Notes under the pieces: generated by a model
What the model saw: only the letters and a program-made list of their open reading frames with translations
Told to the model about the DNA's origin: nothing
Database searches by the model: none
Made by a program: the position numbers and the translations under genes
Part shown: piece after piece, positions 24,727 through 62,824 of the stretch
How positions within the stretch are numbered: the stretch's first letter is position 1
Layout of the letters: each line of letters opens with the position of its first letter
NCBI GenBank assembly: GCA_963827045.1
Contig: CAWGZH010000002.1
Span: 612,520-676,519 of the forward strand
Source of the DNA: an uncultured Solirubrobacterales bacterium
GTDB taxonomy: Bacteria; Actinomycetota; Thermoleophilia; Solirubrobacterales; Solirubrobacteraceae
Length of the DNA stretch: 64,000 bases
Direction of reading: 5' to 3'

Positions 24727-24965
24727 ATTTGGCGTCGAAGGCTAGATGTCTGGACACGGATGATCCACAACGCGCTGCTCGTCAACCCGCTCGTCACGCG
24801 CAACGGACCGACACGCACCGGCAGACGACGCTCGAGCGGCGCGAGACAGGGCTAGTGGTCTGGGCTTCTGCGATTGATGAGCGAAGCAGGAGCATGGCGC
24901 GTGCGTTGGGATCGTGTTTGGACGCCTTTGTGGCTTTCTGCATCGGTGTAGACTTGCTGGACGAC

Positions 24966-37265: not shown

Positions 37266-38555
37266 TCAGGTGTGCGGCGAGGCGAGTATCCGATTCATTG
37301 CAGCCTCACCGCCGATGATCGGGGCCAGGACAAGGTAGGCGGCATGGTGGGCAAGTTGAGGTAGCTGCTGTGTGGCATTACGGGCGACGTACTGATGTGC
37401 GACGTGCCATACGGCGCCGACGATCGCTTCGGCGACGATCTCGGGCGGGCGAGCGTCGCTGGGTACGCGGCTCATCAGGAGTGCAGCGAACTTGTCCATG
37501 AGTCGCGACCGGCGCTCGATGCCGATGCATCCGGCCGCGAAGACCTCAATGAAGGCGCAGCGTGCGAACACTGGATCGTGGCCGACCCGGCTCATAAGTG
37601 CTGTCACTCCGCGCTGGATGGAGTCGATCCAGTCCGTACCTTCGAGCGCGGCCTCGGCTGCGGTAGCCACAACTTCTGCGCCCATCAGATCGTAGCTGTC
37701 CATGAAGCATTGCTCTCTCGACTCGTACAGGGCGAAGAATGCGTTGTCGGGGACCTTCGCTATTTGGACGATCCGGCTGATTGTCAGACTGGGATATCCA
37801 GAAGTGGCGGCGATCCATGCGGCGCTTTGGAGAATCCGAGACGAGTCTGGGTGCCCATCGGGGCTGGGGGCAGGTGGAAGCTGCTGCGATGTCGGTGTGG
37901 GCGGGTGCGGTAGCGCGAGCGCGTCTGCGCAATGGTATGACAGTGCCCAGTTGACCAGGATCGCCGCGAGGGCGGGGAGCTCGTTCTCGCGTCGTTCGAG
38001 GAGAAGCTGGCGTGTGACGCGGGATATCCCGCCGACGATCCCTCGTGCGACGAGCGGCGGAAGTGTTACGCCGTCTGGTGCTTTGATGAAGCTCGATTCG
38101 ATCAAGCTCTCGAACGCTCGGCTGACGCGTTCCATCGGCTCGAGCATCGTCGGTCCTGCGCCAAGGGCCTCGACTGTGGCGAGTCGGGCCGCCTTGGGCT
38201 CGTGGACGACCAACTGGGCGAAGGCGTCGAAGGCGCTGCGTAGTTGTGCTGTGCGGTCCTGCTCGGCGCGGTAGGCGCGGCTCACAGTGACAATCGCGAG
38301 ACGCGCGATGAATTCGTAGGTCGCGGCGAAGTACGCGTCCTTGGTCGGAAACTCGCGATAAATGGCTTCGCTTGAGACGTGCGCCGACTTGCGTAACGCG
38401 AGCATCGTGGTCCCTGAATAGCCGCGCTCGGCCACTACGTCGGTCATCGCCGCGAACATCCGGGCTCGCTGATGATGAATTATCTCCTGCCTTGTGAGTG
38501 CGGTGCCCTTTGGAGTCAACTTGCGGTAGGTAGTCGATTTCACACTCGCCGTCAT
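37266..38555 (-). CDS. Tandem (double) TetR-family regulator
   Basis: Two TetR HTHs: RMFAAM..VVAERGY...IYREF and RILQSA...SGY..LTI...FFALY. Confidence 0.85.
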   Translation of the reverse strand: MTASVKSTTYRKLTPKGTALTRQEIIHHQRARMFAAMTDVVAERGYSGTTMLALRKSAHVSSEAIYREFPTKDAYFAATYEFIARLAIVTVSRAYRAEQDRTAQLRSAFDAFAQLVVHEPKAARLATVEALGAGPTMLEPMERVSRAFESLIESSFIKAPDGVTLPPLVARGIVGGISRVTRQLLLERRENELPALAAILVNWALSYHCADALALPHPPTPTSQQLPPAPSPDGHPDSSRILQSAAWIAATSGYPSLTISRIVQIAKVPDNAFFALYESREQCFMDSYDLMGAEVVATAAEAALEGTDWIDSIQRGVTALMSRVGHDPVFARCAFIEVFAAGCIGIERRSRLMDKFAALLMSRVPSDARPPEIVAEAIVGAVWHVAHQYVARNATQQLPQLAHHAAYLVLAPIIGGEAAMNRILASPHT

Positions 38556-38719
38556 ACAGCGACCTTCCATGTGTTATCGACCGTCGACCCGCTCATGGCA
38601 TTTCTCCGTCAGTGTAAGGAACTGTCTCTAATAACTCAAGTCGGAGAGAGGCACCATTTCGACCCCTAGCCCTCATTAGGCATGACCCCGCGCCCCATGA
38701 CGCCCACACAAATCATCGA

Positions 38720-38849: not shown

Positions 38850-39137
38850 ATGGAAATAAGCCCAAATCCGCAGGTCGCGATCGGCCGCGCCGTCCGCACG
38901 CGTCGCGAAGAAATCGGCATGTCCCAAACGGCGCTCGGACTCGAGGTCGATTTGAAGCAATCGTGGATATCTCATATTGAGTTAGGCCGAGGAAACCCCT
39001 CCTACGGCACCCTTGATCGAATTGCTCGCGCTCTCGGCTGGTCTATGCCGCAGCTGTCTGCGCTTGCGGATGAGTTGGAGACCCAAGAGAGGCGACCAAC
39101 CAACAAGCCGCTCCCGAAGCCAGCCGCCCGCAGCTGA
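38850..39137 (+). CDS. XRE-family HTH regulator
   Basis: GRAVRTRREEIGMSQTALG...ISHIELGRGNPS...IARALG. Confidence 0.9.
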   Translation: MEISPNPQVAIGRAVRTRREEIGMSQTALGLEVDLKQSWISHIELGRGNPSYGTLDRIARALGWSMPQLSALADELETQERRPTNKPLPKPAARS

Positions 39138-39467: not shown

Positions 39468-40385
39468 ATGGTCCCAAGGCCCCAGCACGTCGCGCACGCA
39501 ACCCTCGACCTCCTTGTCGAGGACTGGACCGTGCCCATCCTGCGGGCGTTGATGGTGGCGCCACGACGCCCCAGCGAGCTTGAGTCGCGCCTGCCAGGGG
39601 TAACCCACTCGGCCCTCATGCGACGCCTTGGCGAGCTCGTGAGCAAGAGACTCGCGAGCCGGAGCCGGGCATCGGTCCTAAACCCGACCGTCGTGTACGC
39701 GCTGACGAGCCCCGGTCGTTTGATCCTTGACGTCATGGGCGCTGCCGAGCGCTGGGAGCGCCGCTGGACCGACGAAACCACGGACGGCATCTCGGCACTC
39801 CACCTGATCGCCGACGAACCCACCCGCGAAATCCTGCTGGCGCTCGCTGAGGGGCCTCTCGCGCCCGCCCAGCTCGGGCGGCAGATATCCCTCTCCCGAT
39901 CACCGCTCCGCAGGCGGCTCGCCGGCCTCACAGCTCGCGACGTCCTCGAGCGGCGCGGGTCAGGGGGACATATCAGCTACGCCCTCACCGAGAGCGCCCG
40001 AGATCTCATGCTCGTGTCAATTGCCGCCGCCCGCTGGCAGTGGGAGGTCGAAGCGCCGGACCATCCGCCGCCAGCACTGAACGTCGTCCACATGGTGCAG
40101 ATGTTCGCCGAGCGAGCCGAGCTGCCCGCCGACCTCGAAGGCGTCTGCCATCTGCACGTCGAAGACGGCGCTGAGAAGCCAGTGGTGCTCCTTGCCGCCC
40201 AAGGGCGCCGCCTCACCGCGCTTCCCGCGCACACCGGCACACCACACGCTGTCTGCCACGCAACGCCCCACGAATGGTGCGACGCCCTCCTCCTACGCCG
40301 ATGGGGCAGCATCACAACCACCTATGGCGACCGTGCCCTGATGGCGGCGCTCATCGCCTGCATCAGTTCATCGCTTCTGACGTGA
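39468..40385 (+). CDS. Tandem HxlR-like wHTH regulator with C-terminal SCP2-like domain
   Basis: WTVPILRAL...SEL..RLPGVTHSAL..RL.EL...YALT, repeated in the second half. Confidence 0.75.
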   Translation: MVPRPQHVAHATLDLLVEDWTVPILRALMVAPRRPSELESRLPGVTHSALMRRLGELVSKRLASRSRASVLNPTVVYALTSPGRLILDVMGAAERWERRWTDETTDGISALHLIADEPTREILLALAEGPLAPAQLGRQISLSRSPLRRRLAGLTARDVLERRGSGGHISYALTESARDLMLVSIAAARWQWEVEAPDHPPPALNVVHMVQMFAERAELPADLEGVCHLHVEDGAEKPVVLLAAQGRRLTALPAHTGTPHAVCHATPHEWCDALLLRRWGSITTTYGDRALMAALIACISSSLLT

Positions 40386-40873: not shown

Positions 40874-41437
40874 ATGCGTAGGAATCTCCTACTCAGCCTG
40901 GTGTCGGCGCTCGTGCTCGGTGCAATGGGCACCGCCGCACCCGCGTTTGCAAACTGGACCCCGAACGAAACCAAGGTGACGTTTGCCAGCAGCAATGTCG
41001 CGTTCGAAATCGAAAACGAAGGAAAAACCATCACTACACTGGGCTGCGCGGGAACGTCGGCGTTCGGCGAAACCGGCAAAAACACGGCGTCGTTCACATT
41101 CATGCCGGAATTCGCGAATTGTACGTTTACCGCCACGGCCACCGCTGGTTGGAAAGCCATCGCGGTAACCGCGACCGAAGCCAACATCGAAATACCGATA
41201 AAAGGCGCCACTATCACCGACGGTGCCTGCAAAATCGAACTGGCGCCAACGAAAGCGGAAACGATCAAAGGAACATACAAAGCCGGAAAACCCTCCACGT
41301 GGACCTTCGCACCGACAAGCATAGGAATAGCGGAAAACGCCATCAATTGCTTCAACAAAATAACCGCACAGACCAAAGCCACGATCAAAGCGACGATCAT
41401 TGTGATCGGCGCAGGCGGCGCCATGATTGAACCTTGA
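40874..41437 (+). CDS. Small secreted beta-rich protein with 4 Cys (possible fibre subunit)
   Basis: AAGGAG RBS, signal peptide to APAFA, Thr/Ala-rich beta strands, no anchor. Confidence 0.75.
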   Translation: MRRNLLLSLVSALVLGAMGTAAPAFANWTPNETKVTFASSNVAFEIENEGKTITTLGCAGTSAFGETGKNTASFTFMPEFANCTFTATATAGWKAIAVTATEANIEIPIKGATITDGACKIELAPTKAETIKGTYKAGKPSTWTFAPTSIGIAENAINCFNKITAQTKATIKATIIVIGAGGAMIEP

Positions 41438-41491
41438 CGCCTGACGACGGCGTGCTAAGGACTGTGCCGACAGCCGAATGAAGCAATTACC

Positions 41492-41520
41492 GCGCCCGGG
41501 GCCTCGACCGTCCCGGGCGC
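41492..41520 (+). terminator. Stem-loop after the small secreted gene
   Basis: GCGCCCGGG...CCCGGGCGC. Confidence 0.45.
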
Positions 41521-41910
41521 ACGGCGTTACCGGTATTACCCCATGCTGGCGCCTCACGGCACGCACCCGCACGGCCGAAGAGCGACGCGCCTCGACTGAG
41601 CGACCGAGGCCGAGCGAGTTCAGCTCTAGCCCCGCGCGCTGAAGAAGCGTCTTAGTGACCGCGCGCCCGATTGCATCCGAGTCCTCTCACGATCACGGCC
41701 AGCGAGCTTCAGGCTGCCGTCATCCTCCATCTCCAAGGCGCGATACCTCGGCTTGCTCGGGCGACAAGCTGATCACCGCTGGGCGAGCGCCTTTAAGAAA
41801 CGTCGTTGATCCCGAGACTAGCAAACGTCATCGTGGCTGAATCGAGGGAGATCCCTCTTGTGCCCGAACTCGAGAGAGTCGGGTAGGGACGAGGACCAAG
41901 GGAGCACCAA

Positions 41911-44646
41911 ATGGGGTCAGCAGGAGTAACTGCCCGCGATTGCGGCGCTGGTTGGGCTAGCGGTGGGCGCTTCGCGAGAGAAGGCGACACGCAGCAGCAC
42001 GAGCCCATCGGGCGCAGGCTCCGGCGATTTTTCCTGGTAGTGATGGCAGTGTCCCTCGTGGGACCAAACGCTGCGATGGCGTCTAATCCCCTAGTTCTCG
42101 CGGCGAGATTTGGCGACGACGTCAATGAAACGACCCACGGCACGATCTGTACCGCGTCGGAAGTCGAAAGTGAAGGCGTGACATGCGGGCTGGGCATCGA
42201 AGGGTCAGAGGGCGGGGACTTCAAGGAACCTGGGCATGTCGCGGTAGACGAAACGTCTGGAAATGTATTCATCGCGGACGAAAGCAACAATCGCGTACAG
42301 GAGTTCACACCCAACGGGGTGTTTGTCTTGACCTTCGGGCTCGAAGTTAACGAGACCAAGGACGACACTGCCGGCGCTGCCGGCGCCGAAAGGGATATCT
42401 GCACGGCGGCTTCGGGCAACACATGCACAAGTGGCGCTGCCGGATCAGGGCTGGGCGAGTTCGATCGGCCTACGGGTGTCGCCGTAGACAACTCATCAGG
42501 GCCGTTGGCGGGCTCTGTCTACGTGACGGACTTCAACAATAATCGAGTTCAGGTGTTCTCGACGGCCGGGGCGTACATCGGCCAATTCGCGGGTACGAAC
42601 GCCCCGAAAGCGTTCCAAGGACCCAGAGCGATCGCGGTGAGTTCGGCGACGGGCGATGTCTACGTAGCCGATCAGGGCAACGAAGTGGTGGATAGTTTCG
42701 AACCGAAGTCGAGCGCCGGGAGCCCCGAATGGTCGTATCTGGCGCAGATTGCGTCGAGTCACATTGAACAGCCGACGAGTGTCGCGGTTGACAGTGCGGG
42801 CACCGTGTATGTCGATAACCGTCGCACGACGGTCTTTGCGTTTAGCGCCAGCGGCGCGTACGAAGGCGAACTTGCCGTGGGAAGCAACGCGCGGGACGTC
42901 GCGGTGAACAGCGCAGGGCAGATCTTTGTACTTGCCCAGCAAGGCAGCGCTGGTGCCAAGATCCTCCAGGAGTACGCCGAGTCCGGCGCGGTCGTAGCCG
43001 AAAGCGGCGCAGCGGCCATTCAAGCGCCTGAAGGGGAAGAATTTTGGCTGGCAGTCAACTCCGCTACCGAAGCCGTGTATGTGGTCGAAGGCTACGGCGG
43101 AAATGCGGTGGACATATTCGCGCCCCAGAACACGGAACCAAGCCCTGGCGTGGTGAGCGGAGCAGCGACCGGCGTGACGGAAGTTGCTGCGACGCTCAAC
43201 GGCGAAGTGGAACCGCGTGGCACGAGCGTGATGGACTACTTCGAATACGGAACCAGCCCTTGCGGCCCCGCGGCGTGCGGAGGCGCAACAGATGCAACGG
43301 GGCCGCTGACCGGCGACACCGTCCAACACGTCTCGGCGACGCTCGGTGGCCTCACGCCCGGGACTACGTATCACTATTGGCTTATAGCACGGAACGGGCA
43401 AGGTGCTGTGCACGGTGAACCGCGGGAATTCACGAGTGCAGTGCCCGCACCTAGGGTGACGACGACCCAGGCAACGAGCGTGACTCAGGGTTCGGCCACG
43501 CTTGGCGGCAACGTCGATCCTCGCGGATCCGCGACGACCTACCGCTTCACCTATGCGAGTGCCTCCGACTGCATGGGAGGCCCTGGTCAGTACGGAGGGC
43601 TGCAATGCACGGTGACCACTGTGCCGGGCTCCACCGCGAGCGCCGAAGCTGGGAGCGCTGGCTCGGCGGTGAGTATCCCCTTGACGGGACTCGCTCCGCA
43701 TACGACTTACTACTACGACATCACGGCTACGAGTAGCGGTGGGACGGTGCAAGGTGTGCCGGCGACGTTCACGACGTTGCCTCTCCCTCCTGAAGCGCAG
43801 ACGCTAGGTACCGGCGACCCGGACGGCACCATGCGGGCAATTTACGGCGCGGTGGACCCGAACGGCTCTGAGACGAAGTACACCTTTCAATACGGCCTAA
43901 CGACGATGTACGGCAACGAAGCGCCCACGCCCGACGGTGATGCAGGGTCGGGAAGCACCGTCGAGGATGTCCAGGCCGAGGCCGTCGATCTCACGCCAGG
44001 TACCACTTACCACTACAGAATCGTCGCCACCAACATTGCTGCAGGAATACCACAAACCGCCTACGGGGCAGACGAGACGTTTGCGGCCACGACGAGCGAA
44101 CCGTACGCTGCGATGCCGGGGGCCAGCACAGGAGCCGTGACAGGTATGTCACAAACGCAGGCCACCTTGACGGGCACAGTCACTCCCGGCGGGTTTCCGA
44201 CGAGCTACTTCTTCGATTACGGGAAGACTCTCTACTACGGGAATGAGGCGCCACTCGGCGGTAGAACCGCGGGGGTCGGGTCCGAGGTGGTTGTTTCGGA
44301 AGCTGTGGCAGGGCTGGAGCCTGGTACGACCTACCACTACCGGCTCGTTGTTAGTAGTCCCGGTGGGACCGCGTACGGCGAAGACGAGACCTTCACCACG
44401 CCCCCGGCTCCGGTAGTCAGCCACCTCAGCACCGCGTCTGCAGGGTCGTCATCGCCGCCGCCGAAGAAAGCGAGGCCCGTGACACGCGCCCAGAAGCTCG
44501 CCAAAGCCCTGGCGACGTGCCACAAGCTGAAGGGAAGCACACGCGAGGCGTGCGAAGCGGGCGCTCGCAAGCGCTACGGCGCCAAGCCCAAGCCGAAAGC
44601 GAAGAAGCCCACCAAGACCACGACAACGACCAAGGGGAGCAGGTAA
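41911..44646 (+). CDS. Secreted NHL-repeat propeller plus four FN3-like domains and Lys-rich Cys-pair tail
   Basis: VAVD...FIADESNNRVQEF NHL repeats; ATL.G.V.P.G...Y.F.YG...L.PGTTYHYR repeats; tail RAQKLAKALATC...CEAGARKRYG. Confidence 0.85.
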   Translation: MGSAGVTARDCGAGWASGGRFAREGDTQQHEPIGRRLRRFFLVVMAVSLVGPNAAMASNPLVLAARFGDDVNETTHGTICTASEVESEGVTCGLGIEGSEGGDFKEPGHVAVDETSGNVFIADESNNRVQEFTPNGVFVLTFGLEVNETKDDTAGAAGAERDICTAASGNTCTSGAAGSGLGEFDRPTGVAVDNSSGPLAGSVYVTDFNNNRVQVFSTAGAYIGQFAGTNAPKAFQGPRAIAVSSATGDVYVADQGNEVVDSFEPKSSAGSPEWSYLAQIASSHIEQPTSVAVDSAGTVYVDNRRTTVFAFSASGAYEGELAVGSNARDVAVNSAGQIFVLAQQGSAGAKILQEYAESGAVVAESGAAAIQAPEGEEFWLAVNSATEAVYVVEGYGGNAVDIFAPQNTEPSPGVVSGAATGVTEVAATLNGEVEPRGTSVMDYFEYGTSPCGPAACGGATDATGPLTGDTVQHVSATLGGLTPGTTYHYWLIARNGQGAVHGEPREFTSAVPAPRVTTTQATSVTQGSATLGGNVDPRGSATTYRFTYASASDCMGGPGQYGGLQCTVTTVPGSTASAEAGSAGSAVSIPLTGLAPHTTYYYDITATSSGGTVQGVPATFTTLPLPPEAQTLGTGDPDGTMRAIYGAVDPNGSETKYTFQYGLTTMYGNEAPTPDGDAGSGSTVEDVQAEAVDLTPGTTYHYRIVATNIAAGIPQTAYGADETFAATTSEPYAAMPGASTGAVTGMSQTQATLTGTVTPGGFPTSYFFDYGKTLYYGNEAPLGGRTAGVGSEVVVSEAVAGLEPGTTYHYRLVVSSPGGTAYGEDETFTTPPAPVVSHLSTASAGSSSPPPKKARPVTRAQKLAKALATCHKLKGSTREACEAGARKRYGAKPKPKAKKPTKTTTTTKGSR

Positions 44647-44706
44647 GCATGGAAGCCTCACACAAACGCCCCCCTCGGACCACCCTAACTACGTTCAAGT
44701 GGCTCT

Positions 44707-44749
44707 GGAGACCGGCATCCAGCCTCCACGCCTTTCGCGGCTCTGTTCC
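44707..44749 (-). repeat. 43-bp inverted repeat, partner at 48198-48240
   Basis: 36/43 identity by manual alignment, mismatches mostly transitions. Confidence 0.7.
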
Positions 44750-45176
44750 CGTCCTAACCGTCTCGCGCGGAGCGCTCACTCCATCATTCGGTCACGACAC
44801 CGAGGGAACGACGCCGTGTGAGGCAGCTAGCACGGGCCTCCGTCCAGTAGGCCCAGTTAGGTGTGGGCACCTGGAGTCCATAGTTTCAGCACCTGCGCGT
44901 CACCCGCTCCCCTCTACCGCCTCTGAGGCGTGCTGGATGAAGCGCCGTGGTAGCAGCGTGACAGCGCGTAGTGAGCGCGCGAGGTTGAAGTCATCAACCC
45001 CTTCTGTATCTTCCGCGACCCGGATGGTCGCGCCCCATGTGACTGCCTGCGATGCCGTAGGTGTCGGCCTGCCGCAAAGCGAGAGCGGTACTTATCGCAG
45101 TCTCCTGTTCCATCCACTCCGAGTTGTGATGTATCTGCGCGACACGACATCGTTCTCGTGGCCTCGTCTTCGAGGA

Positions 45177-48099
45177 ATGGAGCGAGCGCCTCGCGCGAGG
45201 CGGTCTCAAAGAGAACAGAGTCGTGGAGCGGCTAGAGGGAGGCACTGCCTCCCGGTCTCAATATCAATGGTGGCTCTCATCCTCGCTCTCGCCCTACCGG
45301 CTTCCGCCCTCGCCGCCTTCGGCGTCACATCGTTTACTGCCGAAGCGATCAACCAGAACGGCACCCTCGATACCCAAGCTGGATCGCATCCCTTTGAGGC
45401 CACGACATCGTTCATATTCAATCAGGCAGCCGGCGCTAAGTACGACGGCGACGGCGCCGGGAACGTAAAGGATGTCGAATTGGAATTGCCTCCAGGCTTT
45501 ATCGGAAATCCGGACGCTACCCCACAATGTTCTGAGAGCCAGCTCATGAGCGAGAACTGCCCCGCCGATACACAGGTCGGGGTCGTAACGGTGACCTTCG
45601 GCGGGCACCTCGCCGGTCCTGATCGGCAACCCGTATACAACCTCGTGCCGCCGAGCGGGCACCCGGCGGCGTTCGGGTTCCGAGCCGCGCCAACAGGCGC
45701 GGTCGCGTCGCAGCTGCTGGCTAGCGTGAACCCAGCCACCGGAGACCGCCTCGTAGTACGGGCGAGCGATATTCCGACTGGCACGGGCAACGACGGCGTC
45801 CTCCCCACCGTGGCCGTTAACTTCACGTTTTGGGGTATGCCAGCTGACCCGGCGCACAACGCCGAACGCGGGCGGCAATGCGATGAAGAGGCAACCGTTG
45901 GGTACGAACCAGGCTGCGAAGCTGGCAACTCCGGCAGCGACGCGCCGCTGACACCCTTCTTGACCAATCCCACAAGCTGTGCGTCGGGTCCACTGACCAC
46001 GACGCTCCGCGTCGATTCCTGGCAGAACCCGGGCCGGTACCTGACCTATGCCGCCGAATCGCCGCAGCCGACTGGTTGTGGCGCGCTGTCGTTTCACCCG
46101 AGTCTCGTGGTCGAACCCGACGCGACGCAGGCCGACACGCCAACGGGTATGACCTTCCGGGTCAAGGTGCCGCAGGACCCGAACGTTTATGGTCTTGGCA
46201 CGTCGGCACTCGAGGCCGCTTTGGTCACCCTTCCTCGCGGGGTCTCTATTGATCCGAGCGCCGCGAGCGGTCTTGCGGGCTGCACCAACGAAGAGATCGG
46301 CATAGGTACTGAACAGCCAGTGACCTGCCCGGCCGCTTCGAAGCTCGGCACAGTGGAAGTCTTCACTCCGCTGCTGGCAAATGAACCTGACGGCTCGGCG
46401 CCCCTGAAGGGCTCGATCTATCTGGGCACACCTATCCCAGGCGAGGAGTACCGTATTTTTCTCGCGATTGAAGGGCACGGCGTTTCGATCCGCCTGGACG
46501 GACGCGTGTCCGCCGACCCGACGACAGGGCAGCTTGCCGCGACGTTCGCGGAAAATCCGCCGCTGCCGTTCAGCGAACTTGTCCTGCGGTTCTTTAGTGG
46601 CGCTCGCGCGGCGCTCGCTAGCCCTGTCTCCTGCGGCCCCGCGACAACGACGAGTGACCTGACGCCTTATGGTGCGCCGGAAATCCCCGACGCGACTCCT
46701 GCCAGTTCGTTCTCTCCGACGGGGTGCGCGAGCCCGGCGCCGTTCAGTCCGAATATGTCGGCGGGCACGACCAGCAGGCAAGCAGGCTCCTACAGCAGCT
46801 TCACGCTCCAGCTGAGCCGTAGCGACGGCCAGCAATACCTCTCGCAGCTCGCGCCGGTGTCGCTTCCGCCCGGTCTCGTCGGCAACATCTCATCGGCCCC
46901 GCTCTGCGGGGCCGGAGAAGCAGCAGCCGACACCTGCGGTCCCCTCAGTGAGATCGGAACCGTCACCGTGGGGGCAGGGCCAGGACCGGAACCCTTCTAT
47001 CTCGGCGGGCGCGTGTACCTCACCGAAGGCTATGACGGAGACCCCTTTGGGCTCTCGATAGTCGTGCCCGCGATCGCGGGGCCCTACAACCTCGGCACGG
47101 TTGTCGTGCGCGCTGGCGTCAAGGTGAACAACAACGGCTCGGTGACGGTCCACGCAGATCCGGTTCCGACGATCCTAGAAGGCATCCCGCTACGCCTGCG
47201 CTACATCGGGGTCACGCTCGACCGGCCGAGCTTCATGGTCAACCCCACTAACTGCGGTCAGCAGACAATCACCGCCACGGCGCTCGCCCAGCAAGGAGCA
47301 AGCGCGAGCTTGACGAGCGGCTACTTCGCCACCGGCTGCGCCCGACTGCCCTTCAATCCCGTTCTCCTTGCCACCACCGAGGGCAACGCAAGCGCAGCAG
47401 AGAACGGCCACGGAGCGTCCCTGGCGGTGCGGATCATGCAGAGCTCGGGTGAAGCGGACATACGCGCTGTTCACGTTGACCTGCCAAAGGCTCTGCCAGC
47501 CCGGCTCAAGACGCTCAATAAGGCATGCACCGAAGCACAGTTCGCCAGCGATCCCGCCGGTTGCCCGGCCGCGTCGAAGGTAGGCACCGCAGTCGCTCAT
47601 ACACCGTTTCTCCCCGTGCCGCTGCAAGGGCCCGCGATCTTTGTGTCACACGGAGGCGCCGCGTTCCCTGACCTCGTTCTTGTTCTCCAGGGCGACGGGG
47701 TGACGATCAATCTGACGGGGGAGACGTTCATCGCAGAGAAGACCGGCATAACGTCCTCAACGTTCAAGTCGGTCCCCGACGTGCCGATCGGGGGCTTTGA
47801 ACTTGACCTGCCGGAGGCGAGTAACTCTGCATTGGCTGCGGCGCACGGGAGCCTCTGCGACTCGCGGCTGAACATGCCGACCACCATCGAAGCGCAGAAC
47901 GGCAGGCTCATCAAGCAAACCACGAACATCGACGTGACGGGCTGCAAAGCCAAGCCGCCGTCGCGCCCGCAAAAACTCGCCTCAGCCGTTAAGGCGTGCA
48001 AGAAAAACGAGACGGGTGACAGGCGATCCGCCTGCGACGCAGGCGAAGAAGAACTACGGAACGAAAGCCAATGCCACCAGGAACAGGAGGGGCAACTGA
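45177..48099 (+). CDS. Large secreted protein with four LPxG...C-x(n)-CPxxSxxG domains; native stop reached only via a frameshift near 48039
   Basis: Signal peptide to PASALA; the tail QKLASAVKAC...ACD continues as QAKKNYG...RRGN* (TGA 48097-48099) in the +1 frame. Confidence 0.75.
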
Positions 48100-48101
48100 T
48101 C

Positions 48102-50528
48102 ATGCGGACTGCACAGAAATTTGTCCGCCCCTTCGCGGGCTGGACGAAGCGCGATGCTGACAGCCTGAGGTGGCGGAGCGGTCACAAGTTGTACTCAGGA
48201 GCGGAGCTGCGGAAGGCTCGGAGGCTGGACGCCGGTCTCCGTGGCGTGAAGTTCACCGTCGGCCTCGCGCTCGGTGTAGCGATGCTCGGTTGGGCTCGGG
48301 CGAACCCAGCCCTAGGCATGCAAGCGCCCGCCTGTCCCAACGAACAAGTACGCCATGAAAGCAGCATCAACCCTGCAACAGGTCAGCCATATTCAACTGA
48401 ACTACCGGAATGCCGCGCTTATGAGCTGGTGACTCCAGGTAGCCACAACGCCCAAGGCAACACTTTGGGCCTAACTGGGCAAGCGGTAGCGCCGGACGGC
48501 AGTGTTGCCGTCATTCAGTCCATGACCGAGCTGCCTGGGTCTCCCGTCGGGGGCGAGGGCTGGGATATCGCGACACGCGGACCCGATGGATGGGAAATGA
48601 CACCCCTCGAGCCTCCAACTGACGATCCAGACAATGTCCGCACGCAGGCCACGGGTGCCGTGGGCGAAGGCTTTGCGACCGTTTTTCTTGGCGACGATAA
48701 CGACCTGCTGGCAGGTGACGCCGACGCGAACATTGACGATGTGTTCGCCGTGAGCACCGGAGGACTACAAGCCTGGATATCGCAGGGGCCGAGTGGTGGC
48801 GTCGGCGTAGCGCCGGCCCCAAATGTCGGCAACAACGAAGAGTTGGTGGATATCGTTGGTGGAGCCACGCCGGGCCTAAGCCGAGTTGTGTTCCAGACAC
48901 CCTTCGGGGCGCTGATCCCTAGGGACACTCACGCTTACGGCGGGGAGATTTACGACCGGCTTGGCGAGAACCGCACCGAACTGGTCGGGATCCTGCCAGA
49001 CGAATCGGTGCCGATGTGTGGTGCATCGTTGGGAGAGCAGACGAACGGGGGCGTCGGCTACGGCGGCTCGGTCTCGCAAGCCGGCACTACCGTGTTCTTC
49101 GAGAGTCCCGACCCAATCTCGAAGACAACGAGCGTCCAGCGCCCCGGGCTGGAAGCCTGCCCAGTTGGCGCGTGGATGCCACCGCAACTCTACGCGCGGG
49201 TGAACGACACGGAAACAGTGAAGGCGTCGGCCCCCGCGGCTGGCGTCGCCGACCCAAACGGAGAACAGGAATCCCGTTACCAGGCCGCGACACCAGAAGG
49301 CGGTGACGTGCTGTTCACCAGTAAGGGCGAGTTGACGCAGAACGCGAATACCGACGGCGACACCGCCGAAGACTTGTACGAGTACGAAGTCGGTACACAC
49401 CGTTTGACCGACGTGTCTTCCGAGGGCCTGACTGACTCACACGGATCGGCGGTGCAGGGTGTTCTTGGCGCCTCGGAAAACGGACGCGTGGTCTATTTCG
49501 TAGCCCAAGGCAAGCTAACCACTGACGCCACTAGCGGGAACGACAACGTGTACGTATCGGATGCTGGTCAGCTCTCCTACATCGCCGACCTGAGTTCATC
49601 CGATCGTGCCGATTGGGAAGGCGTCAGTCAGGGCCGCACCACTCGGCTCACGCCCGACGGATCGGACCTGCTGTTCTCATCGACCGAGAGCCTTACTGGA
49701 TACGACAACGCCGGTAGGGCCGAGCTCTTTGTCTACGCACTGGGCGTCCCAGGCCTCGCCTGCGTGTCCTGTGGTGCCCCGGGCACCGCAGCGACCGGCG
49801 CCGCCACACTCGGCGGCGCCGGTAACCCTGCCTTTGCGCCTTCCGCAAACATCACTCCGGATGGCAGTTTCGTCCTCTTCGATTCCGAAGACGCACTCAC
49901 CCCAGACACTACGGCCGGGGTCGACGCCGTATACGAGTGGCAAGACGGCATACTTTCCCTCATTGCCCCAGGTGGCCCAACGGGTGCGAGCCTGGTAGGA
50001 GCGAGCACCGACGGCAGTAACGTTTTTTTCAAGACGAGCCAAGCGCTCACGGCACAAGACCAAACTGGAGGCGAAGTCGAGATATATGACGCGAGAGTCA
50101 ACGGTGGCTTCCCATCTCCTCCCACCCCCCCAAAGCAATGTGAATCAATCGCAGAATGCAGAAGTGAAACTACTACCCTTTCTGCTCCGACGATCGCCTC
50201 GCTGACGCCAGGCGCAGTCGGCAACGTGGCGCCGCCTAAGGCGGCGCCACCTGACGCCAAGGTGGCGATCACAAAGCACACCACGAAGTCGGTTTCTGTA
50301 AAAGTGAGCGGAAAGGGTATGGTGAGCCTGGCGGGAGCGGGATTGCGAGCCGTCAGGTTGTCGGTGCGAACAGCCGGCACCTACAACCTCAAACTGTCTC
50401 TGACCGCTCACGAGAAGGCGTTGTTGATAAAGCGGAAGCGTGTGGCAATACGCGTTCGGGTGGAGTTCGTACCGGCCTCTGGGAAGTCCGCCGTCGCGTC
50501 GGTCGCCTTCACTTTGGAGGGCCCTTAG
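48102..50528 (+). CDS. Secreted TolB/WD40-like beta-propeller protein with basic C-terminal domain (currently fused in frame to the upstream gene)
   Basis: AGGAGG before ATG 48102; hydrophobic signal; LPECRAYELVTP and repeated TPDGSxVLF blades. Confidence 0.75.
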   Translation: MRTAQKFVRPFAGWTKRDADSLRWRSGHKLYSGAELRKARRLDAGLRGVKFTVGLALGVAMLGWARANPALGMQAPACPNEQVRHESSINPATGQPYSTELPECRAYELVTPGSHNAQGNTLGLTGQAVAPDGSVAVIQSMTELPGSPVGGEGWDIATRGPDGWEMTPLEPPTDDPDNVRTQATGAVGEGFATVFLGDDNDLLAGDADANIDDVFAVSTGGLQAWISQGPSGGVGVAPAPNVGNNEELVDIVGGATPGLSRVVFQTPFGALIPRDTHAYGGEIYDRLGENRTELVGILPDESVPMCGASLGEQTNGGVGYGGSVSQAGTTVFFESPDPISKTTSVQRPGLEACPVGAWMPPQLYARVNDTETVKASAPAAGVADPNGEQESRYQAATPEGGDVLFTSKGELTQNANTDGDTAEDLYEYEVGTHRLTDVSSEGLTDSHGSAVQGVLGASENGRVVYFVAQGKLTTDATSGNDNVYVSDAGQLSYIADLSSSDRADWEGVSQGRTTRLTPDGSDLLFSSTESLTGYDNAGRAELFVYALGVPGLACVSCGAPGTAATGAATLGGAGNPAFAPSANITPDGSFVLFDSEDALTPDTTAGVDAVYEWQDGILSLIAPGGPTGASLVGASTDGSNVFFKTSQALTAQDQTGGEVEIYDARVNGGFPSPPTPPKQCESIAECRSETTTLSAPTIASLTPGAVGNVAPPKAAPPDAKVAITKHTTKSVSVKVSGKGMVSLAGAGLRAVRLSVRTAGTYNLKLSLTAHEKALLIKRKRVAIRVRVEFVPASGKSAVASVAFTLEGP

Positions 50529-57434: not shown

Positions 57435-57796
57435 TGCTCTGCAATCGGCATGACGCGCTCGGCTCATTACTCGAATGGGCGCGACGTGGGCCGAACGTCT
57501 GGGCGGCGTTGCCGCTCGTCACGCCAGCCGGAATTGCGGCCTGGTTTCGTGTCGGCGGCTCTCCGCTCGTCACGCCTATCGGAACCTGCGCCCCGTATTT
57601 TGCAGGGTGCGTTGCGTTGCCTCGACGGGCCTGCGGAGGGCACCGGTTGGACCTAGAGTTCCCGGCGCTGAGAACGGCTCGGGCCACCGACCAAAAGTGG
57701 CGGCGGTGGCCCAAGATCCGGACTCGGTGATCAAAGCAAAGAGGCATCCATCAAGTACAACTGTGCCTCGCCGCCTGTAGTTCCAGTTCGTAGTGC

Positions 57797-58207: not shown

Positions 58208-58430
58208 GACATTTACTAGACACTCAAGCGGTTTGGAGATAACCGCTATGCGGGATACGGGGAGAATCTGGACTTGTATGCTGGACCGGCAGGACGAGCG
58301 AGAGCTGCGCCGGTTGAGCGTTCGATCTCGCTGGAGCATCACCGCGAATGGGCACCAATCGAACACAAAGACACGCCGGCCTAAGGACTCCCGGCGTGCA
58401 CGAATGGGCATCTCGTGAATGGGAGGGCAT

Positions 58431-58934
58431 ATGACACGCAGCTCGGGGGCAAAGACGCGCAGCCTGACTCTCTTGGTCTGTCTCGCCGTGACACTCGGCG
58501 CGGCGATCGCAGTGGCCGCGCAGGCATCCGGCAGCACACGCGACCCGGTGGCGAGGGCCGCCAAACGCGTGCACTTCGTTGAGGTCGCGAAGCTGAAATA
58601 CAGCCACGAAAAAGGCACGGCGATCGTGGAGACCGGCAACGCGACCGGCACCTACGATGCGCCGCTCATCTGCGAATTCATTCTGCACGCCTCCTCGGTG
58701 TCAGCGGTCGTCACGATCTCCCCGAAGGGGGGCACGATCACGGGTACCGCGACCGCGAAATTCAAGGACGTGGGTCACCTGGACTACTTCGGCGGCGAAT
58801 TCAGGTTCGGTCACGGCACCGGCAAGTTCCGGCACATCTCCCTCGTCAACGGGAAGCCGCTCGGATTCAGCGGCGTCCTGAACCACGAAACGGACGCAGG
58901 GGAAGTCAAAACCAGCGGGGAAGCAAACGACTAG
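58431..58934 (+). CDS. Small secreted beta-rich protein
   Basis: GGGAGG RBS, signal peptide, GGTITG and GHGTGKF turns suggestive of a small beta-barrel. Confidence 0.7.
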   Translation: MTRSSGAKTRSLTLLVCLAVTLGAAIAVAAQASGSTRDPVARAAKRVHFVEVAKLKYSHEKGTAIVETGNATGTYDAPLICEFILHASSVSAVVTISPKGGTITGTATAKFKDVGHLDYFGGEFRFGHGTGKFRHISLVNGKPLGFSGVLNHETDAGEVKTSGEAND

Positions 58935-58960: not shown

Positions 58961-59725
58961 GTGCTCCTTCCCAGGGCGATGGTGGCGGCGTTGATCGGCT
59001 GCTTCTGCTTCGCCTCCACAGCAACCGCAGCCGACACGACGAAGCTGAACATCTCCTTCGTCCCTGACCGCGCGGGCGCACGCACAACGATCGACCTTGC
59101 GCTGCGGGTCATCGGGCCACACGGCACGCCACCGCAACCTGTCACCTCGTTTGATCTGCGGCTGCCCGCGAGCATGGGTCTCGCCAGCACCTCTCTAGGG
59201 GAGGCGAACTGCGAGCCGGCCGCGCTGTTCAGCGGCGGCTTGACGGGCTGCTCCCCAAACGCCCGGCTTGGCTTCGGCACCGCCACGGCGGTTGTGCCAG
59301 TCGGCGCTCAGACGATCACCGAGCACGCGACCCTAGACGCCCTGCTCGGGCAACCGGGCGAAGACCGAATCGAAGTGCTGTTCTACATCCAGGCTGGCGA
59401 TCCCGTCTTCGCTCAACTGGTCCTTCCGAGCATCGTCGAAGAAGCCGCACCCCCCTATGGCGAACAGCTCGCCACGTCCGTTCCACTGGTCGAAGCGTGG
59501 CCCGAAGGACCCGACCTCGCCCTTGAGACTTTCGTGTCGTCCATCGGTCCTCGCGGCCTGACCTACTACCGGCACATCAACGGACGCACGGTCGCGCACA
59601 AGCCGCGCGGATTCAGGATCCCCAAGAGCTGCCCGGCGGGCGGCTACCCGTTCGAGGTCGAGCTGACATTCGCCGACGGCACGCAAAGCGCCGCCACCCA
59701 CCGAGTCCCGTGCCCGCCCCGATAG
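58961..59725 (+). CDS. Secreted single-domain member of the LPxG/Cys-pair domain family
   Basis: Signal peptide; LRLPASM...CEPAALFSGGLTGCSPNARLG. Confidence 0.7.
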   Translation: MLLPRAMVAALIGCFCFASTATAADTTKLNISFVPDRAGARTTIDLALRVIGPHGTPPQPVTSFDLRLPASMGLASTSLGEANCEPAALFSGGLTGCSPNARLGFGTATAVVPVGAQTITEHATLDALLGQPGEDRIEVLFYIQAGDPVFAQLVLPSIVEEAAPPYGEQLATSVPLVEAWPEGPDLALETFVSSIGPRGLTYYRHINGRTVAHKPRGFRIPKSCPAGGYPFEVELTFADGTQSAATHRVPCPPR

Positions 59726-59770: not shown

Positions 59771-62700
59771 TTGCCCGTGCGGCAGACCCTCGCCGCGTGC
59801 CTGCTCTGCCTGGCGGTTGGCGCGGCTCCCGCCGCCGCCAGCGAAGCACCGTTTGCTGTCTCGGCGTTCACGACGCAGGCGACCGAAGTGCCCCCGAGCG
59901 GCGGAAGCGAACCCGTGCCCTTCGATCAGGCAGGCGGACATCCCTTCGCGCTCACAACAACCGTCAACTTCGCGGCTGGCGATGACCCCAAGGATCTTCG
60001 GATCGAGTTGCCGCCCGGTCTGCTCGCGAACCCGCGAGCGGTCGCTCAGTGCTCGCCCCAGGCCGCACAGTGCCCCACCGACTCGCAGGTCGGCGTCTTC
60101 TCGCTGCACTTCACAGGCGACGAACAGCAGCTCGAAGTCGAGGGCTCGATCTACAACCTCACCCCCTACACAGGTGTCCCCGCAGAGCTCGGCCTCGAAG
60201 TGCCGATCCTTGACCGGATCATCCTCACCGCCCACCTCATCAGAAGCCCCGCCGGGTACACCCTCGCGCTCGTGGGGAGCGGCCTGCCGACCCTGAACCT
60301 CGGCGAACTGCTGAGCGGAGCGCCGCCGCTTCACCTGTCGGGCATGGAAACAACCCTGTGGGGTGTCCCGGCCGCCGCCGCACACGACGCGCAGCGAGGC
60401 ATCTCATGCTTCGGCGGGATCGTCGCCGGGCTCGGCTGCCAAGGCGGCGGCCTGTCTGACGGCGAACCGGCCGTGCCGTTCATCACGATGCCAAGCGGCT
60501 GCTCCACAACACCCGTGAGCACCGTGTGGGCCGACTCGTGGCAGGAACCGGGACGCTACGTCCAAGCACAATACGCGCTGCCCACGATGTCCTCCTGCGA
60601 CCGCTCAGTGTTCTGGCCAGAACTGTCTTTGCGCCCTGAAACGCTTCGACCGGAAGCGGCTGACGGGGTCAGCCTCGCGATCAACGTCCACGAGTTTGAA
60701 GGCAGCACGGTCGCGGCCCCGGAGCTGCGAGCCGCGAGGGTCACCCTCCCGCAGGGCATGGCAATCAACCCGGCTGTAGCGGACGGCCTCAAGGCTTGCC
60801 CGGCGAGCGGACCAGAAGGCGTCAACATCCCCACCGGTGTGAACTCGAGCGGCGAACCGCTGGCACCCGGGGAACCTGGACCCGGCGAAGAAATCCCGCC
60901 AGAGGGCCTCGGCCCACAGGAACCCGAACTCTCACCTGGCCACTGCCCCAACGCCTCGATCCTCGGGACAGCCGAAGCGATCACGCCGCTGCTTGCGCAT
61001 CCGATCGAAGGGCGCGTCTACATCGCGACGCCCGGATGCGGCGGCGACGGCGAACCGGCGTGCACCGAGGAGGACGCCGCCGACGGCAACCTCTACAAGC
61101 TGTGGATCGAACTCGGGGCCGGCCCGAACACGAAACGAAACGAAGGGGTGTTGCTGAAGCTGGCCGCGAGCGTGGAGGCGAACCCGGCCACCGGGCAGCT
61201 CACCGTCCATCTCACGGAAAGCCCTCAACTCCCCTTGAGCGAACTGACCCTTCACTTGTTCGGCGGCGAACGAGCATTGCTTGTGAACCCGTCGAGCTGC
61301 GGGGCGGCAACCACCACCTCCGACCTTCAGTCGTGGAGCGCCCCGTTCGCCGCTGACGCCTCACCCTCCTCGTACTTCAACGTGACTGGCTGCACCAGCC
61401 GCCCCCTCGCCCCACGATTCCTCGCCGGTGTCGTGAACCCGGACGCGGCGGCGTCAAGCCCTTTCATCCTCACACTCAGTCGCGGCGCTGGCGAACCGTA
61501 TCTCTCCGCCCTACAGGCCCAAACGCCGCCCGGCGTCTCGGCGATGCTCTCAAGCGTGCCGCCCTGCACCGAACCGCAGGCCAGCAGCGGCGGCTGCCCC
61601 GAAGCCTCTCGTGTCGGGAGCGCCGAAGTATCAGCAGGCGGCGGATCCCTGCCGTTGCGACTGCCGGGAGCGATCTACCTCACCACCGGCTTTCACGGCG
61701 CCCCGTTCGGCCTGTCGATCGTCACCAACGCCGACGCTGGACCCTTGCACCTCGGAGCGATCGTGACCCGCGCCACCGTCACCATCGACCCTGTCACGGC
61801 GGCGCTCACGATCACGACCAACCCGCTGCCGCAGATCGTGCTCGGCGTCCCCCTGCGGGTGCAGCGCGTGAGCCTGAACATCGACCGGCCAGGCTTCATC
61901 CTCAACCCAACCGACTGCCACGCAGAGCACGTCACAGCGACGATCGCGAGCACGGAAGGCGCAAGCACGAACGTGTCTGACCCCTTCGCGGTCGGAGATT
62001 GCGCGAGCCTGCCGTTCAAACCGAAGCTGACCGCGTCAACGAGCGCACACAACACCTTCGCGAGCGGCGCGAGCCTCGACATGCGGCTCACCTTCCCACC
62101 CGCCACGGCCGGAGCGCCCGCGAACATCAAGCGCATTCGAGTCGCGCTGCCCATCCATCTCCCCTCCCGCCTCACAACCCTCCAGGGCGCTTGCCCGGCA
62201 GCTACCTTCGCTCACAACCCCGCGGCTTGCCCTCCCTCCTCGACGGTCGGGATCGCGACAGCCCACACCCCGCTCCTGTCCGGCGCCCTGACCGGACCCG
62301 TCGTGTTCGTCACCCGTGGCCGCGATCAAGTTCCGGCACCCAGCGTGATCCTCCAAGGCAACGATGTGACGCTCATCCTCCAGGGCTCAACCGCGATCAA
62401 CACCCAAGGCGTCGCGACAGTCGCTTTCAACTCGATCCCCGACGTGCCTTTGCAGAGCCTCGAGCTGTACCTCCCACAGGGCGCGCACTCGCTCGTGACC
62501 GCCAACACGAACCTGTGCGCACTCACCCGAACAGTGCTCGTGACCCGCCACGTCAAGGTCCGCGAGCACGGCCGCACAGTGCGCCGCTCGAAGCGCGTGC
62601 GCAAGCGACTGCCCGCCACCCTGCGAATGCCAACAGAACTCGCCGGCCAGAACGGGGCGGTCATCCACGACACGACGCCGGTCACGGTGAGCGGCTGCGC

Positions 62701-62824
62701 CCAGGGCCAACTTGGGGGCCGTCCCCCGCACACGGGCACACAGGCCCAGAAGACCCAAAAAGACGTAGCACTCGACCTGCGAAAGGGCGCCCGGTCGCTG
62801 GCAGCCGGCCACCCATTGACTTAG
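59771..62824 (+). CDS. Large secreted four-domain LPxG/Cys-pair protein, paralog of 45177-48099
   Basis: Signal peptide to APAAA; QAGGHPF; four Cys-pair units; Arg/Lys-rich C-terminal insert. Confidence 0.8.
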   Translation: MPVRQTLAACLLCLAVGAAPAAASEAPFAVSAFTTQATEVPPSGGSEPVPFDQAGGHPFALTTTVNFAAGDDPKDLRIELPPGLLANPRAVAQCSPQAAQCPTDSQVGVFSLHFTGDEQQLEVEGSIYNLTPYTGVPAELGLEVPILDRIILTAHLIRSPAGYTLALVGSGLPTLNLGELLSGAPPLHLSGMETTLWGVPAAAAHDAQRGISCFGGIVAGLGCQGGGLSDGEPAVPFITMPSGCSTTPVSTVWADSWQEPGRYVQAQYALPTMSSCDRSVFWPELSLRPETLRPEAADGVSLAINVHEFEGSTVAAPELRAARVTLPQGMAINPAVADGLKACPASGPEGVNIPTGVNSSGEPLAPGEPGPGEEIPPEGLGPQEPELSPGHCPNASILGTAEAITPLLAHPIEGRVYIATPGCGGDGEPACTEEDAADGNLYKLWIELGAGPNTKRNEGVLLKLAASVEANPATGQLTVHLTESPQLPLSELTLHLFGGERALLVNPSSCGAATTTSDLQSWSAPFAADASPSSYFNVTGCTSRPLAPRFLAGVVNPDAAASSPFILTLSRGAGEPYLSALQAQTPPGVSAMLSSVPPCTEPQASSGGCPEASRVGSAEVSAGGGSLPLRLPGAIYLTTGFHGAPFGLSIVTNADAGPLHLGAIVTRATVTIDPVTAALTITTNPLPQIVLGVPLRVQRVSLNIDRPGFILNPTDCHAEHVTATIASTEGASTNVSDPFAVGDCASLPFKPKLTASTSAHNTFASGASLDMRLTFPPATAGAPANIKRIRVALPIHLPSRLTTLQGACPAATFAHNPAACPPSSTVGIATAHTPLLSGALTGPVVFVTRGRDQVPAPSVILQGNDVTLILQGSTAINTQGVATVAFNSIPDVPLQSLELYLPQGAHSLVTANTNLCALTRTVLVTRHVKVREHGRTVRRSKRVRKRLPATLRMPTELAGQNGAVIHDTTPVTVSGCAQGQLGGRPPHTGTQAQKTQKDVALDLRKGARSLAAGHPLT

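Follow-up and report, generated by a model that had tools for sequence, protein, structure and literature searches.

An Unnamed Cys-Paired Beta-Sandwich Repeat Unit in Secreted Proteins of Two Gene Cassette Types in Solirubrobacteraceae

Genes of the Two Clusters and Their Repeat Unit

The stretch of DNA studied here (64,000 nucleotides of contig CAWGZH010000002.1 from an uncultured Solirubrobacterales bacterium, hereafter the window) carries on its forward strand two clusters of genes for secreted proteins, one of four genes (A1 to A4) and the other of three (B1 to B3), which have in common a large protein built of four copies of a Cys-paired, all-beta repeat unit (A3 and B3). A first-pass annotation made from the letters alone had delineated these genes, regarded the clusters as parallel operons on an unnamed repeat domain and proposed a self-assembling fimbrial or S-layer-like system. 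All the genes are present on the forward strand where it had placed them, and all seven products begin with a Sec-type signal peptide, in agreement with the secretion that it had claimed. The G+C content lies between 61 and 68%. Their features are as follows.

40874..41437 (+): A1, small secreted protein of 187 residues with four Cys (open reading frame and signal peptide)
41911..44646 (+): A2, signal peptide, NHL beta-propeller, four FN3-like domains and basic tail (Pfam)
~42208-43110 (+): NHL part of A2
~43138-44415 (+): FN3-like part of A2
~44458-44646 (+): Lys/Arg-rich Cys-pair tail of A2
45177..48099 (+): A3, four-unit protein, starting at ATG 45177 or ATG 45267
~45318-46010, 46053-46670, 46686-47312 and 47322-47948 (+): units of A3, followed by the basic Cys tail (motif and unit profile)
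48102..50528 (+): A4, PD40/TolB-type beta-propeller protein, with eight blades at ~48489-50141 and a C-terminal beta module at 50304-50528
58419..58934 (+): B1, small secreted beta-rich protein of 171 residues, first gene of the B cassette
58961..59725 (+): B2, single divergent unit, 254 residues (motif, unit profile and secondary-structure order)
59771..62824 (+): B3, four-unit protein of 1017 residues, without a basic tail
~59846-60532, 60581-61342, 61349-61975 and 61970-62608 (+): units of B3, with a C-terminal Cys-bridged hairpin reaching ~62698

The real start codon of A2 is probably downstream of position 41911. The unit itself spans about 205–250 residues, is all-beta with two sub-domains, and is marked by an LPxG motif, a Cys loop and a CPxxSxxG motif. 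Searched as a regular expression, this motif matches four times in A3, three times in B3 (where the fourth copy reads Q-T-P instead of x-L-P) and once in B2; no other match occurs in any of the six frames of the window. The first-pass annotation had set the distance between the two Cys at 6–20 residues, which does not hold for unit 2 of B3 (48 residues), but its count of four units per large protein and one in B2 stands when a hidden Markov model (HMM) is used. This unit HMM was trained on 250 segments from diverse members of the family and was seeded through the motif. It finds exactly four domains in A3 (residues 48-278, 293-498, 504-712 and 716-924) and in B3 (residues 26-254, 271-524, 527-735 and 734-946), at E-values from 1e-34 to 1e-53; A1, A2, A4, B1 and shuffled controls return noise (E ≥ 0.2).

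The four units of the large proteins are homologous to one another: when the four parts of a 46-sequence B3-family alignment were compared as profiles, unit 1 was linked to unit 3 (probability 94%, E 1e-7), unit 2 to unit 3 (97%, E 3.5e-11) and unit 2 to unit 4 (97.6%, E 3.9e-12). A3 and B3 are homologous from end to end, with 35% identity across 987 residues (E 5e-164); together with this homology, the four HMM domains and the Cys pattern bear out their membership in one four-unit family.

B2 was accepted as one divergent unit, with a link that is weak for the window copy. The unit HMM finds one domain in each of the 21 B2-family sequences tested, the window copy among them (E 1e-9 to 2.5e-4; 12 bits for the window copy), and a direct comparison of the B2-family and B3-family profiles is not significant. 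The order of predicted secondary-structure elements in B2 mirrors that of a B3 unit: three strands are followed by LPxx, by a loop that contains a short helix and is closed by a Cys bridge, by long hairpins and by a terminal hairpin that is again Cys-bridged. One Cys pair of B2 (Cys84-Cys97) lies in the loop, the other (Cys224-Cys251) at the C-terminal hairpin. The 263 homologues of B2 keep a constant length of about 254 residues.

Across the B3 family, 18 Cys are invariant and two nearly so, always paired within a unit, a pattern that would fit about ten disulfides in the four-unit protein, that is, about two per unit; the disulfide stabilisation proposed earlier is thereby upheld as a prediction. 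Unit 1 alone has an invariant H57, W197 and R209 and a nearly invariant E193 and H205 (B3 numbering). These residues fall at B3 positions 57 and 193-210 (window ~59939-59941 and 60347-60400), where the consensus reads 'ETTLWGVPA..HD..RG', and their counterparts in A3 are 'QAGSHPFE' and 'FWGMPADPAHNAERG'. This cluster is possibly a ligand or metal site, putatively located at the variable distal end of the protein.

An Unnamed Family of a Familiar Structural Class

The unit proteins A3, B3 and B2 match no family in Pfam-A 2025, NCBIfam 20.0, PADLOC, PHROG or the PDB sequences, and none of 46 B3-family members matches any Pfam family at E ≤ 0.01. Searches of the PDB sequences with single sequences and profiles of the A4, B3, B1 and B2 families yield noise only, while representatives of the wider family fall in named families through their NHL and FN3-like parts only. 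In PADLOC and PHROG, the NHL propeller of A2 alone gives weak generic matches; the unit proteins correspond to no defence or phage structural family there, and no enzyme, toxin, defence or phage family is matched by any of these proteins in Pfam, NCBIfam, PADLOC or PHROG. A literature search on these proteins found nothing relevant. The repeat domain is thus real, repeated and unnamed, as the first-pass annotation had it, and does not map to a well-described family.

The AlphaFold2 model of B3 is confident and all-beta (predicted local distance difference test, pLDDT, 82.9; predicted template-modelling score, pTM, 0.75), and that of B2 has two beta-sandwich parts (pLDDT 76). Compared with the PDB and with viral models (BFVD) using Foldseek, the B3 model retrieves only generic tandem immunoglobulin (Ig)-like arrays, with template-modelling (TM) scores ≤ 0.16 and 6–10% identity: in the PDB, complement and alpha2-macroglobulin arrays of macroglobulin (MG) domains, integrin alpha legs, mastigoneme, SafDAA, AgI/II C123 and Bap-B. 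The best of these hits are the MG-domain arrays of C3, C4, C5 and alpha2-macroglobulins (E ~1e-7 to 1e-5). Among the viral models, the neighbours are DUF11, FN3, Big-1 and minor tail proteins. The B2 model has no PDB match at E < 1e-3, its structural match to WxLIP being noise (rank 15, E 0.12, probability 0.07). It had been suggested that a fold search might reveal donor-strand, TasA-like or pilin-like folds, but neither model gives a specific TasA-like or donor-strand match, and the sole chaperone-usher match (SafDAA-dsc) arose from a generic tandem-Ig alignment. Because named families are not matched and the fold neighbours are generic and Ig-like, the unit is best described as an unnamed family within a familiar structural class.

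Motifs of known surface systems are likewise missing. None of the seven proteins has an LPXTG-type tail, the sortase TLxTC signature occurs in none of the six frames of the window, and no sortase was found among the recurrent neighbours of related loci, nor any usher or periplasmic chaperone gene among the conserved ones, in line with the first-pass annotation, which had seen no sortase, LPXTG or usher. The pilin YPKN motif and the CxEQ thioester motif were not found either, and neither SLH nor any other S-layer Pfam family is matched by the unit proteins or the 46 family members.

In the propeller protein A2, Pfam recognises NHL (E 1.4e-20), Pur_ac_phosph_N (4e-16) and fn3 (1e-13); PF01436 scores 72.7 bits over three stretches (cut-off 20), PF16656 59.7 bits (cut-off 30) and PF00041 51.4 bits (cut-off 25), which places the protein in the NHL family and the FN3 superfamily, and 'GTTYHY' strands recur in the sequence. 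The sequence of A4 shows eight PD40-type blades with the pattern '[ST]PDGSxVxF'; the window A4 has no Pfam match, and three homologues match PD40 at 16.9–23.6 bits (cut-off 20.9), one of them above the cut-off.

Family Size and Taxonomic Spread

More than 1300 relatives of B3 are present in a collection clustered at 90% identity, all annotated as "hypothetical" and none with a Pfam domain, the named ones deriving from metagenome-assembled genomes (MAGs) of Solirubrobacteraceae. A HMMER scan of 1.84 billion representatives of clusters at 50% identity retrieved 9311 clusters at E ≤ 1e-3 and 3517 at E ≤ 1e-30. The longest family proteins reach 7161 residues, and giants include P0243, in which at least 14 units repeat about every 205 residues, and P0247, with 18; one giant is labelled Actinomycetota. 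Fusion forms also exist, for example P0299, in which NHL and FN3-like parts precede the units in one chain. In a taxonomy survey of one genome per GTDB species (577 confirmed stretches), the best 80 stretches all belong to Solirubrobacterales/Solirubrobacteraceae MAGs, except for one bin labelled Mycobacterium, which is taken to be mis-binned, and some genomes have six or more copies.

Two Cassette Types Sharing the Four-Unit Protein

To compare gene order, open reading frames (ORFs) were mapped in 82 loci and in another 45 metagenome loci. More than 100 loci contain these gene sets, in support of the first-pass annotation; its idea of parallel operons does not survive, however, as the A and B clusters are two different cassette types with only the four-unit protein in common.

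Type B consists of B1 (~165 residues), B2 (~255 residues) and B3 (~1000 residues), as in the window, and was found in 23 loci. The order is B3, B1, B2 in two loci (L010 and L013), and a third (L017) also has B3 followed by B1 and B2. A B1-B2 pair without a B3 gene after it occurs in L085 (9467-10765), so B1 and B2 may act as a pair alone. This type looks single-copy, with an identity of about 46–52%. Three long-read MAG contigs (L003, L008 and L070) have their B2 and B3 genes split into several ORFs, which is taken to reflect indel errors of such assemblies. Genes of FtsX/MacB-type ATP-binding cassette (ABC) transporters are found no more than 8 kb away from the B cassette in 6–9 of the 23 type-B loci versus 1–2 of the 55 type-A loci, either directly upstream on the same strand (L007 and L008), divergently adjacent (L084) or, in the window, at 53769-56318.

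The usual layout of type A is a regulator with TetR_N and winged-helix domains (47 loci) followed by A4, A3 and A2, often with 4-nucleotide overlaps. The succession A4, A3, A2 recurs in 55 type-A loci, and A4 directly upstream of A3 is also seen among the 45 further metagenome loci. At least six type-A cassettes are present in some genomes, and tandem cassettes and A3 triplets occur (L072, L077, L111, L113 and L118). Downstream of type A elsewhere, there are genes for a membrane-anchored collagen-repeat protein (36 loci) and for tandem small Cys-rich secreted proteins (26 loci), examples of such collagen-repeat or small Cys-rich genes being L082:2673-3476, L035:13550-14371 and L050:14415-17039. 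The A cluster of the window has the type-A gene set in the order A2, A3, A4, unlike the recurrent one, and includes neither a collagen-like gene nor a small Cys-rich gene. The conservation of gene order assumed by the first-pass annotation therefore holds for B1-B2-B3 and not for the A set as arranged in the window.

The small proteins do not bear out the role of major subunit initially assigned to them. A1 has no Pfam or NCBIfam match and a single homologue (46% identical) among 5.8 billion proteins, and is absent from the 82 related loci; it is an orphan rather than a conserved part of the system, and was rejected as a conserved subunit. Homologues of B1 adjoin B2 in 22 loci. Since A1 is an orphan and B1, though conserved, is unrelated to A1 and to the unit, the idea of a small major subunit fails. 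No profile link was detected among A1, B1, the small Cys-rich family and the unit, and a grouping of A1, B1 and the small Cys-rich proteins in one family was rejected accordingly. The only family lead for B1 is a weak AOC_like match (E 0.05) in two of 19 members, so that an allene-oxide-cyclase-like barrel remains a weak lead.

C-Terminal Tails, Conservation Gradients and the A3/A4 Junction

Nearly all homologues of A2, A3 and A4 have a Lys/Arg-rich C-terminal tail, in many cases with a Cys pair, and such tails are present in 109 of the 150 best family representatives. In the window A4, this place is taken by a beta module of about 55–70 residues (50304-50528), which also closes a 1244-residue RCC1-repeat protein (24729-28463; module copy at 28293-28457, 36% identity), as well as A3 of locus L086 and the giant P0243. 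The module appears to be a C-terminal alternative to the Lys/Arg-rich Cys tail, possibly with an anchoring role. Among type-A paralogues, mean identity amounts to 60% for A3, 43% for A4 and 40% for A2; within A3, it climbs from 48% in unit 1 to 71% in unit 4, whereas it is flat in B3.

One long ORF (44517-50528) spans A3 and A4 without a stop between them. The A3 homologues and the window A2 share the tail form '...QKLAKAL..C........C...A+K+YG..KK*', and the tails of A2 and A3 are 47% identical over 36 residues. In the window A3, the tail continues in frame +1 ('...AKKNYGTKANATRNRRGN*', stop TGA at 48097-48099): an extra G at ~48042-48043 moves the gene out of the usual tail, and the frame in use stays open into A4. 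Because of the broken B2 and B3 ORFs in the long-read loci mentioned above, the frameshift site was compared in contigs assembled from three independent soil runs. All of them have an identical sequence there, which indicates that the frameshift is real in the population, and an assembly error as the origin of the A3-A4 fusion was rejected on these grounds. A3 may thus be made as an A3-A4 fusion devoid of the tail. A4 keeps an AGGAGG (48085-48090) located 11 nucleotides before its ATG (48102), and it can probably still be made separately for that reason.

Genomic Surroundings in the Window

A1 and A2 lie about 0.5 kb apart, as do A2 and A3, and for that reason the segment 40874-50528 need not be a single operon. 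Promoter and terminator scans show no excess over shuffled controls, and Rfam has no match anywhere in the window. Upstream of A1 lie a TetR-type gene (37266..38570, −; Pfam TetR_N), an XRE helix-turn-helix protein (38850-39137, +) and a double HxlR/MarR-type protein (39468-40385, +). The TetR-type gene is weakly related to the cassette regulator family (24–25% identity, two tblastn segments, E 5e-12) and might regulate the A genes.

Three ORFs of about 848 residues are located at 12821-15367 (+), 18469-21018 (−) and 53769-56318 (+). The third is an FtsX/MacB_PCD permease (Pfam), and the other two match the same FtsX-type locus proteins. Between this permease and B1 sits a GGDEF diguanylate cyclase with N-terminal membrane segments (56262-57467, −), the 3′ end of which overlaps that of the permease by about 57 nucleotides; no GGDEF gene was found near the B cassette in any of the 23 type-B loci.

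Comparison with Known Surface Systems

In architecture, these proteins resemble the tandem Ig-fold stalk adhesins of Gram-positive bacteria (MSCRAMM B-repeats/Cna_B, SasG, Bap B domain and antigen I/II C123). Both are secreted strings of beta-sandwiches, with a unit number that varies (from 1 to at least 14 here) and a variable distal N-terminus opposed to a conserved cell-proximal C-terminus, and Foldseek touches Bap-B and C123. Unlike them, the unit described here is larger (~205–250 residues in two sub-domains), would rely on disulfides instead of isopeptide bonds or Ca2+, has no sequence family match and is associated with a Lys/Arg-rich tail in place of LPXTG and sortase.

In Lactobacillales, a genome has several paralogous WxL/Csc clusters; the proteins encoded there, small and large, are all secreted and are held non-covalently on the wall. 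By analogy, our cassettes also appear as paralogous sets encoding exported proteins only, without assembly machinery and with a presumed non-covalent attachment; in contrast, they have no WxL, DUF916 or DUF3324 domain and belong to a different phylum. The integrin alpha chains, with their propeller head on Ig-like legs, and the MG-domain proteins (alpha2-macroglobulin and C3/C4/C5) are the top structural neighbours of B3. Here, propeller and beta-sandwich legs are encoded by neighbouring genes, or by one chain in P0299, but the TM scores mentioned above (≤ 0.16), the absence of a thioester domain or motif and the lack of any sequence relation set these proteins apart. Sortase-assembled and chaperone-usher pili and TasA/BslA fibres also have Ig-like subunits, with weak non-specific Foldseek touches to SafDAA, FimA and BslA, yet their defining machinery and motifs were not found, and the host is an actinobacterium. 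As for the propeller families (TolB/PD40 and NHL), A2 is a true NHL-repeat protein and A4 has its eight PD40-type blades, but A4 is not TolB, as it is exported by a Gram-positive bacterium without Tol-Pal partners.

Interpretation of the Cassettes

We tentatively favour, somewhat short of regarding it as probable, an explanation in which these proteins form non-covalently held surface stalk or adhesin complexes with variable propeller-headed partners. They would be Sec-exported, oxidatively folded cell-surface proteins of a Gram-positive soil actinobacterium, based on a lineage-specific beta-sandwich module of ~205–250 residues locked by two disulfides, with the four-unit protein (A3 or B3) as their rigid stalk or scaffold. 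For the multi-copy cassettes of type A, the partners of A3 would be two propellers, A4 (PD40 type), whose translation would be coupled to that of A3 in other genomes, and A2 (an NHL head on four FN3 domains); both would diverge fast and bind ligands. A3 would point its variable N-terminal unit outward, while its conserved C-terminal units and the Lys/Arg-rich Cys-pair tail would attach the proteins, without covalent bonds, to the anionic cell envelope. Cassettes would duplicate and diverge, each under its own TetR-type regulator, giving rise to a repertoire of binding specificities, and the single-copy B1-B2-B3 might be a conserved core version, in which the one-unit B2 would partner B3. A surface location is plausible, and we infer surface retention, complex formation and a binding function, a fimbria or S-layer being one of several possibilities. 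What the sequences and models themselves show are the export signals, the repeat architecture, the conserved Cys, the beta fold, the recurrence of the cassettes, the basic tails and the gradients of conservation. These speak for the explanation, as do the tandem Ig-like stalks that are the sole structural neighbours of B3, the modular build of giants and fusions, and the lack of any enzyme, toxin, defence or phage family match. Several observations weigh against this explanation: propellers can be enzymes as well as binders; the B proteins, devoid of Lys/Arg-rich tails, do not fit a retention by such tails; in the window, the tail of A3 is frameshifted and A4 has its other C-terminal module; and the window A cluster is atypical in its order, its 0.5-kb gaps and the reading of A3 into A4.

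Other explanations deserve to be considered alongside it. A bolder version of the same proposal, which we regard as possible yet doubtful, is that of a new lineage-specific surface appendage: a disulfide-locked heteromeric fibre made of A4-A3-A2, elsewhere together with the membrane-anchored collagen-like and small Cys-rich proteins and with giants of 14–18 units, anchored by the polybasic Cys-pair tail in place of sortase, SLH or lipid anchors and diversified by cassette duplication within an order that ranks among the most abundant soil actinobacteria. Somewhat less credible, and to be held as unlikely, is an inducible extracellular complex for enzymatic or nutrient-capture purposes, in which the propellers or the His/Glu/Trp/Arg cluster of unit 1 would be catalytic or substrate-binding on a four-unit scaffold and each TetR-type regulator would sense a different substrate. 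The TetR-family regulator accompanying most type-A cassettes, the many paralogous cassettes per genome, the enzymes known among NHL and PD40 propellers (along with a very weak SGL/lactonase-like match to A2, E 0.012) and the conservation in unit 1 (H57, W197 and R209 invariant, E193 and H205 nearly so) all speak for such a complex, but no catalytic family or motif was found in any of the proteins, no transporter or catabolic gene is consistently linked to type-A cassettes, and basic tails and FN3 stalks suit display better than catalysis. The self-assembling, disulfide-stabilised fimbria or S-layer-like array with a small major subunit and large minor or adhesin subunits, as proposed in the first-pass annotation, now seems decidedly unlikely. 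It would account for proteins that are all secreted, all-beta and Cys-rich, for giant tandem arrays that look fibre-like, for a tight conserved B1-B2-B3 trio in which the first gene is small, and for the tandem small Cys-rich secreted and collagen-like genes of type-A loci elsewhere, and there are weak fold matches to the pilus or filament proteins SafDAA and mastigoneme, and to BslA for B2. These matches are nevertheless generic Ig stacks (TM ≤ 0.3); A1 stands alone as an orphan, and no relationship connects B1 with the small Cys-rich family, or either of these with A1 or the unit; sortase, LPXTG, the pilin YPKN motif, usher and SLH were not found; and the presence of six or more divergent cassettes in a genome, each with a regulator of its own, is not what one would expect of one abundant structural layer. 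No feature of the sequence, of the models or of the gene neighbourhood points specifically to polymerisation.

The last two alternatives concern the B cassette or the fold alone. That B1-B2-B3 are substrates or extracellular partners of a MacB/FtsX-type ABC permease (with a MacB periplasmic core domain), for example in an envelope-remodelling or export module, would explain the excess of FtsX/ABC genes near type-B cassettes (6–9/23 versus 1–2/55 type-A loci), and is nonetheless improbable in our opinion: the linkage is absent from most B loci, unrelated genes intervene in some of them (GGDEF in the window; IclR and P450 in L001), part of the linkage may be synteny inherited among close relatives, and two of the three such permeases of the window lie far from the cassette. 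An alpha2-macroglobulin/complement-like protease trap, or some other defence protein, can scarcely be envisaged. Even though the best B3 hits in the PDB are MG-domain arrays (E ~1e-7 to 1e-5), the TM scores (≤ 0.16) and identities (6–10%) are very low, there is no A2M Pfam match and PADLOC returns nothing for the unit proteins; the alpha2-macroglobulin reading was rejected because the CxEQ motif and the helical thioester domain are both lacking, the model being all-beta.

Significance

Members of the Solirubrobacterales abound in soils and are difficult to culture; to our knowledge, almost nothing is known of their cell surface, no paper that we found bearing on it. Tandem beta-sandwich surface proteins with propeller heads being of a familiar kind, what is new here is an unnamed domain family and its cassette organisation rather than a new principle. 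Neither Pfam nor NCBIfam has an entry for the family, which is why numerous large genes of these genomes carry only a "hypothetical" annotation. It would become possible to define the unit as a domain family, to recognise the two cassette types and to treat the polybasic Cys-pair tail as a candidate anchoring module. Thousands of proteins could be annotated in this way, and experiments on the attachment of these bacteria to particles, polymers or other cells may become feasible.

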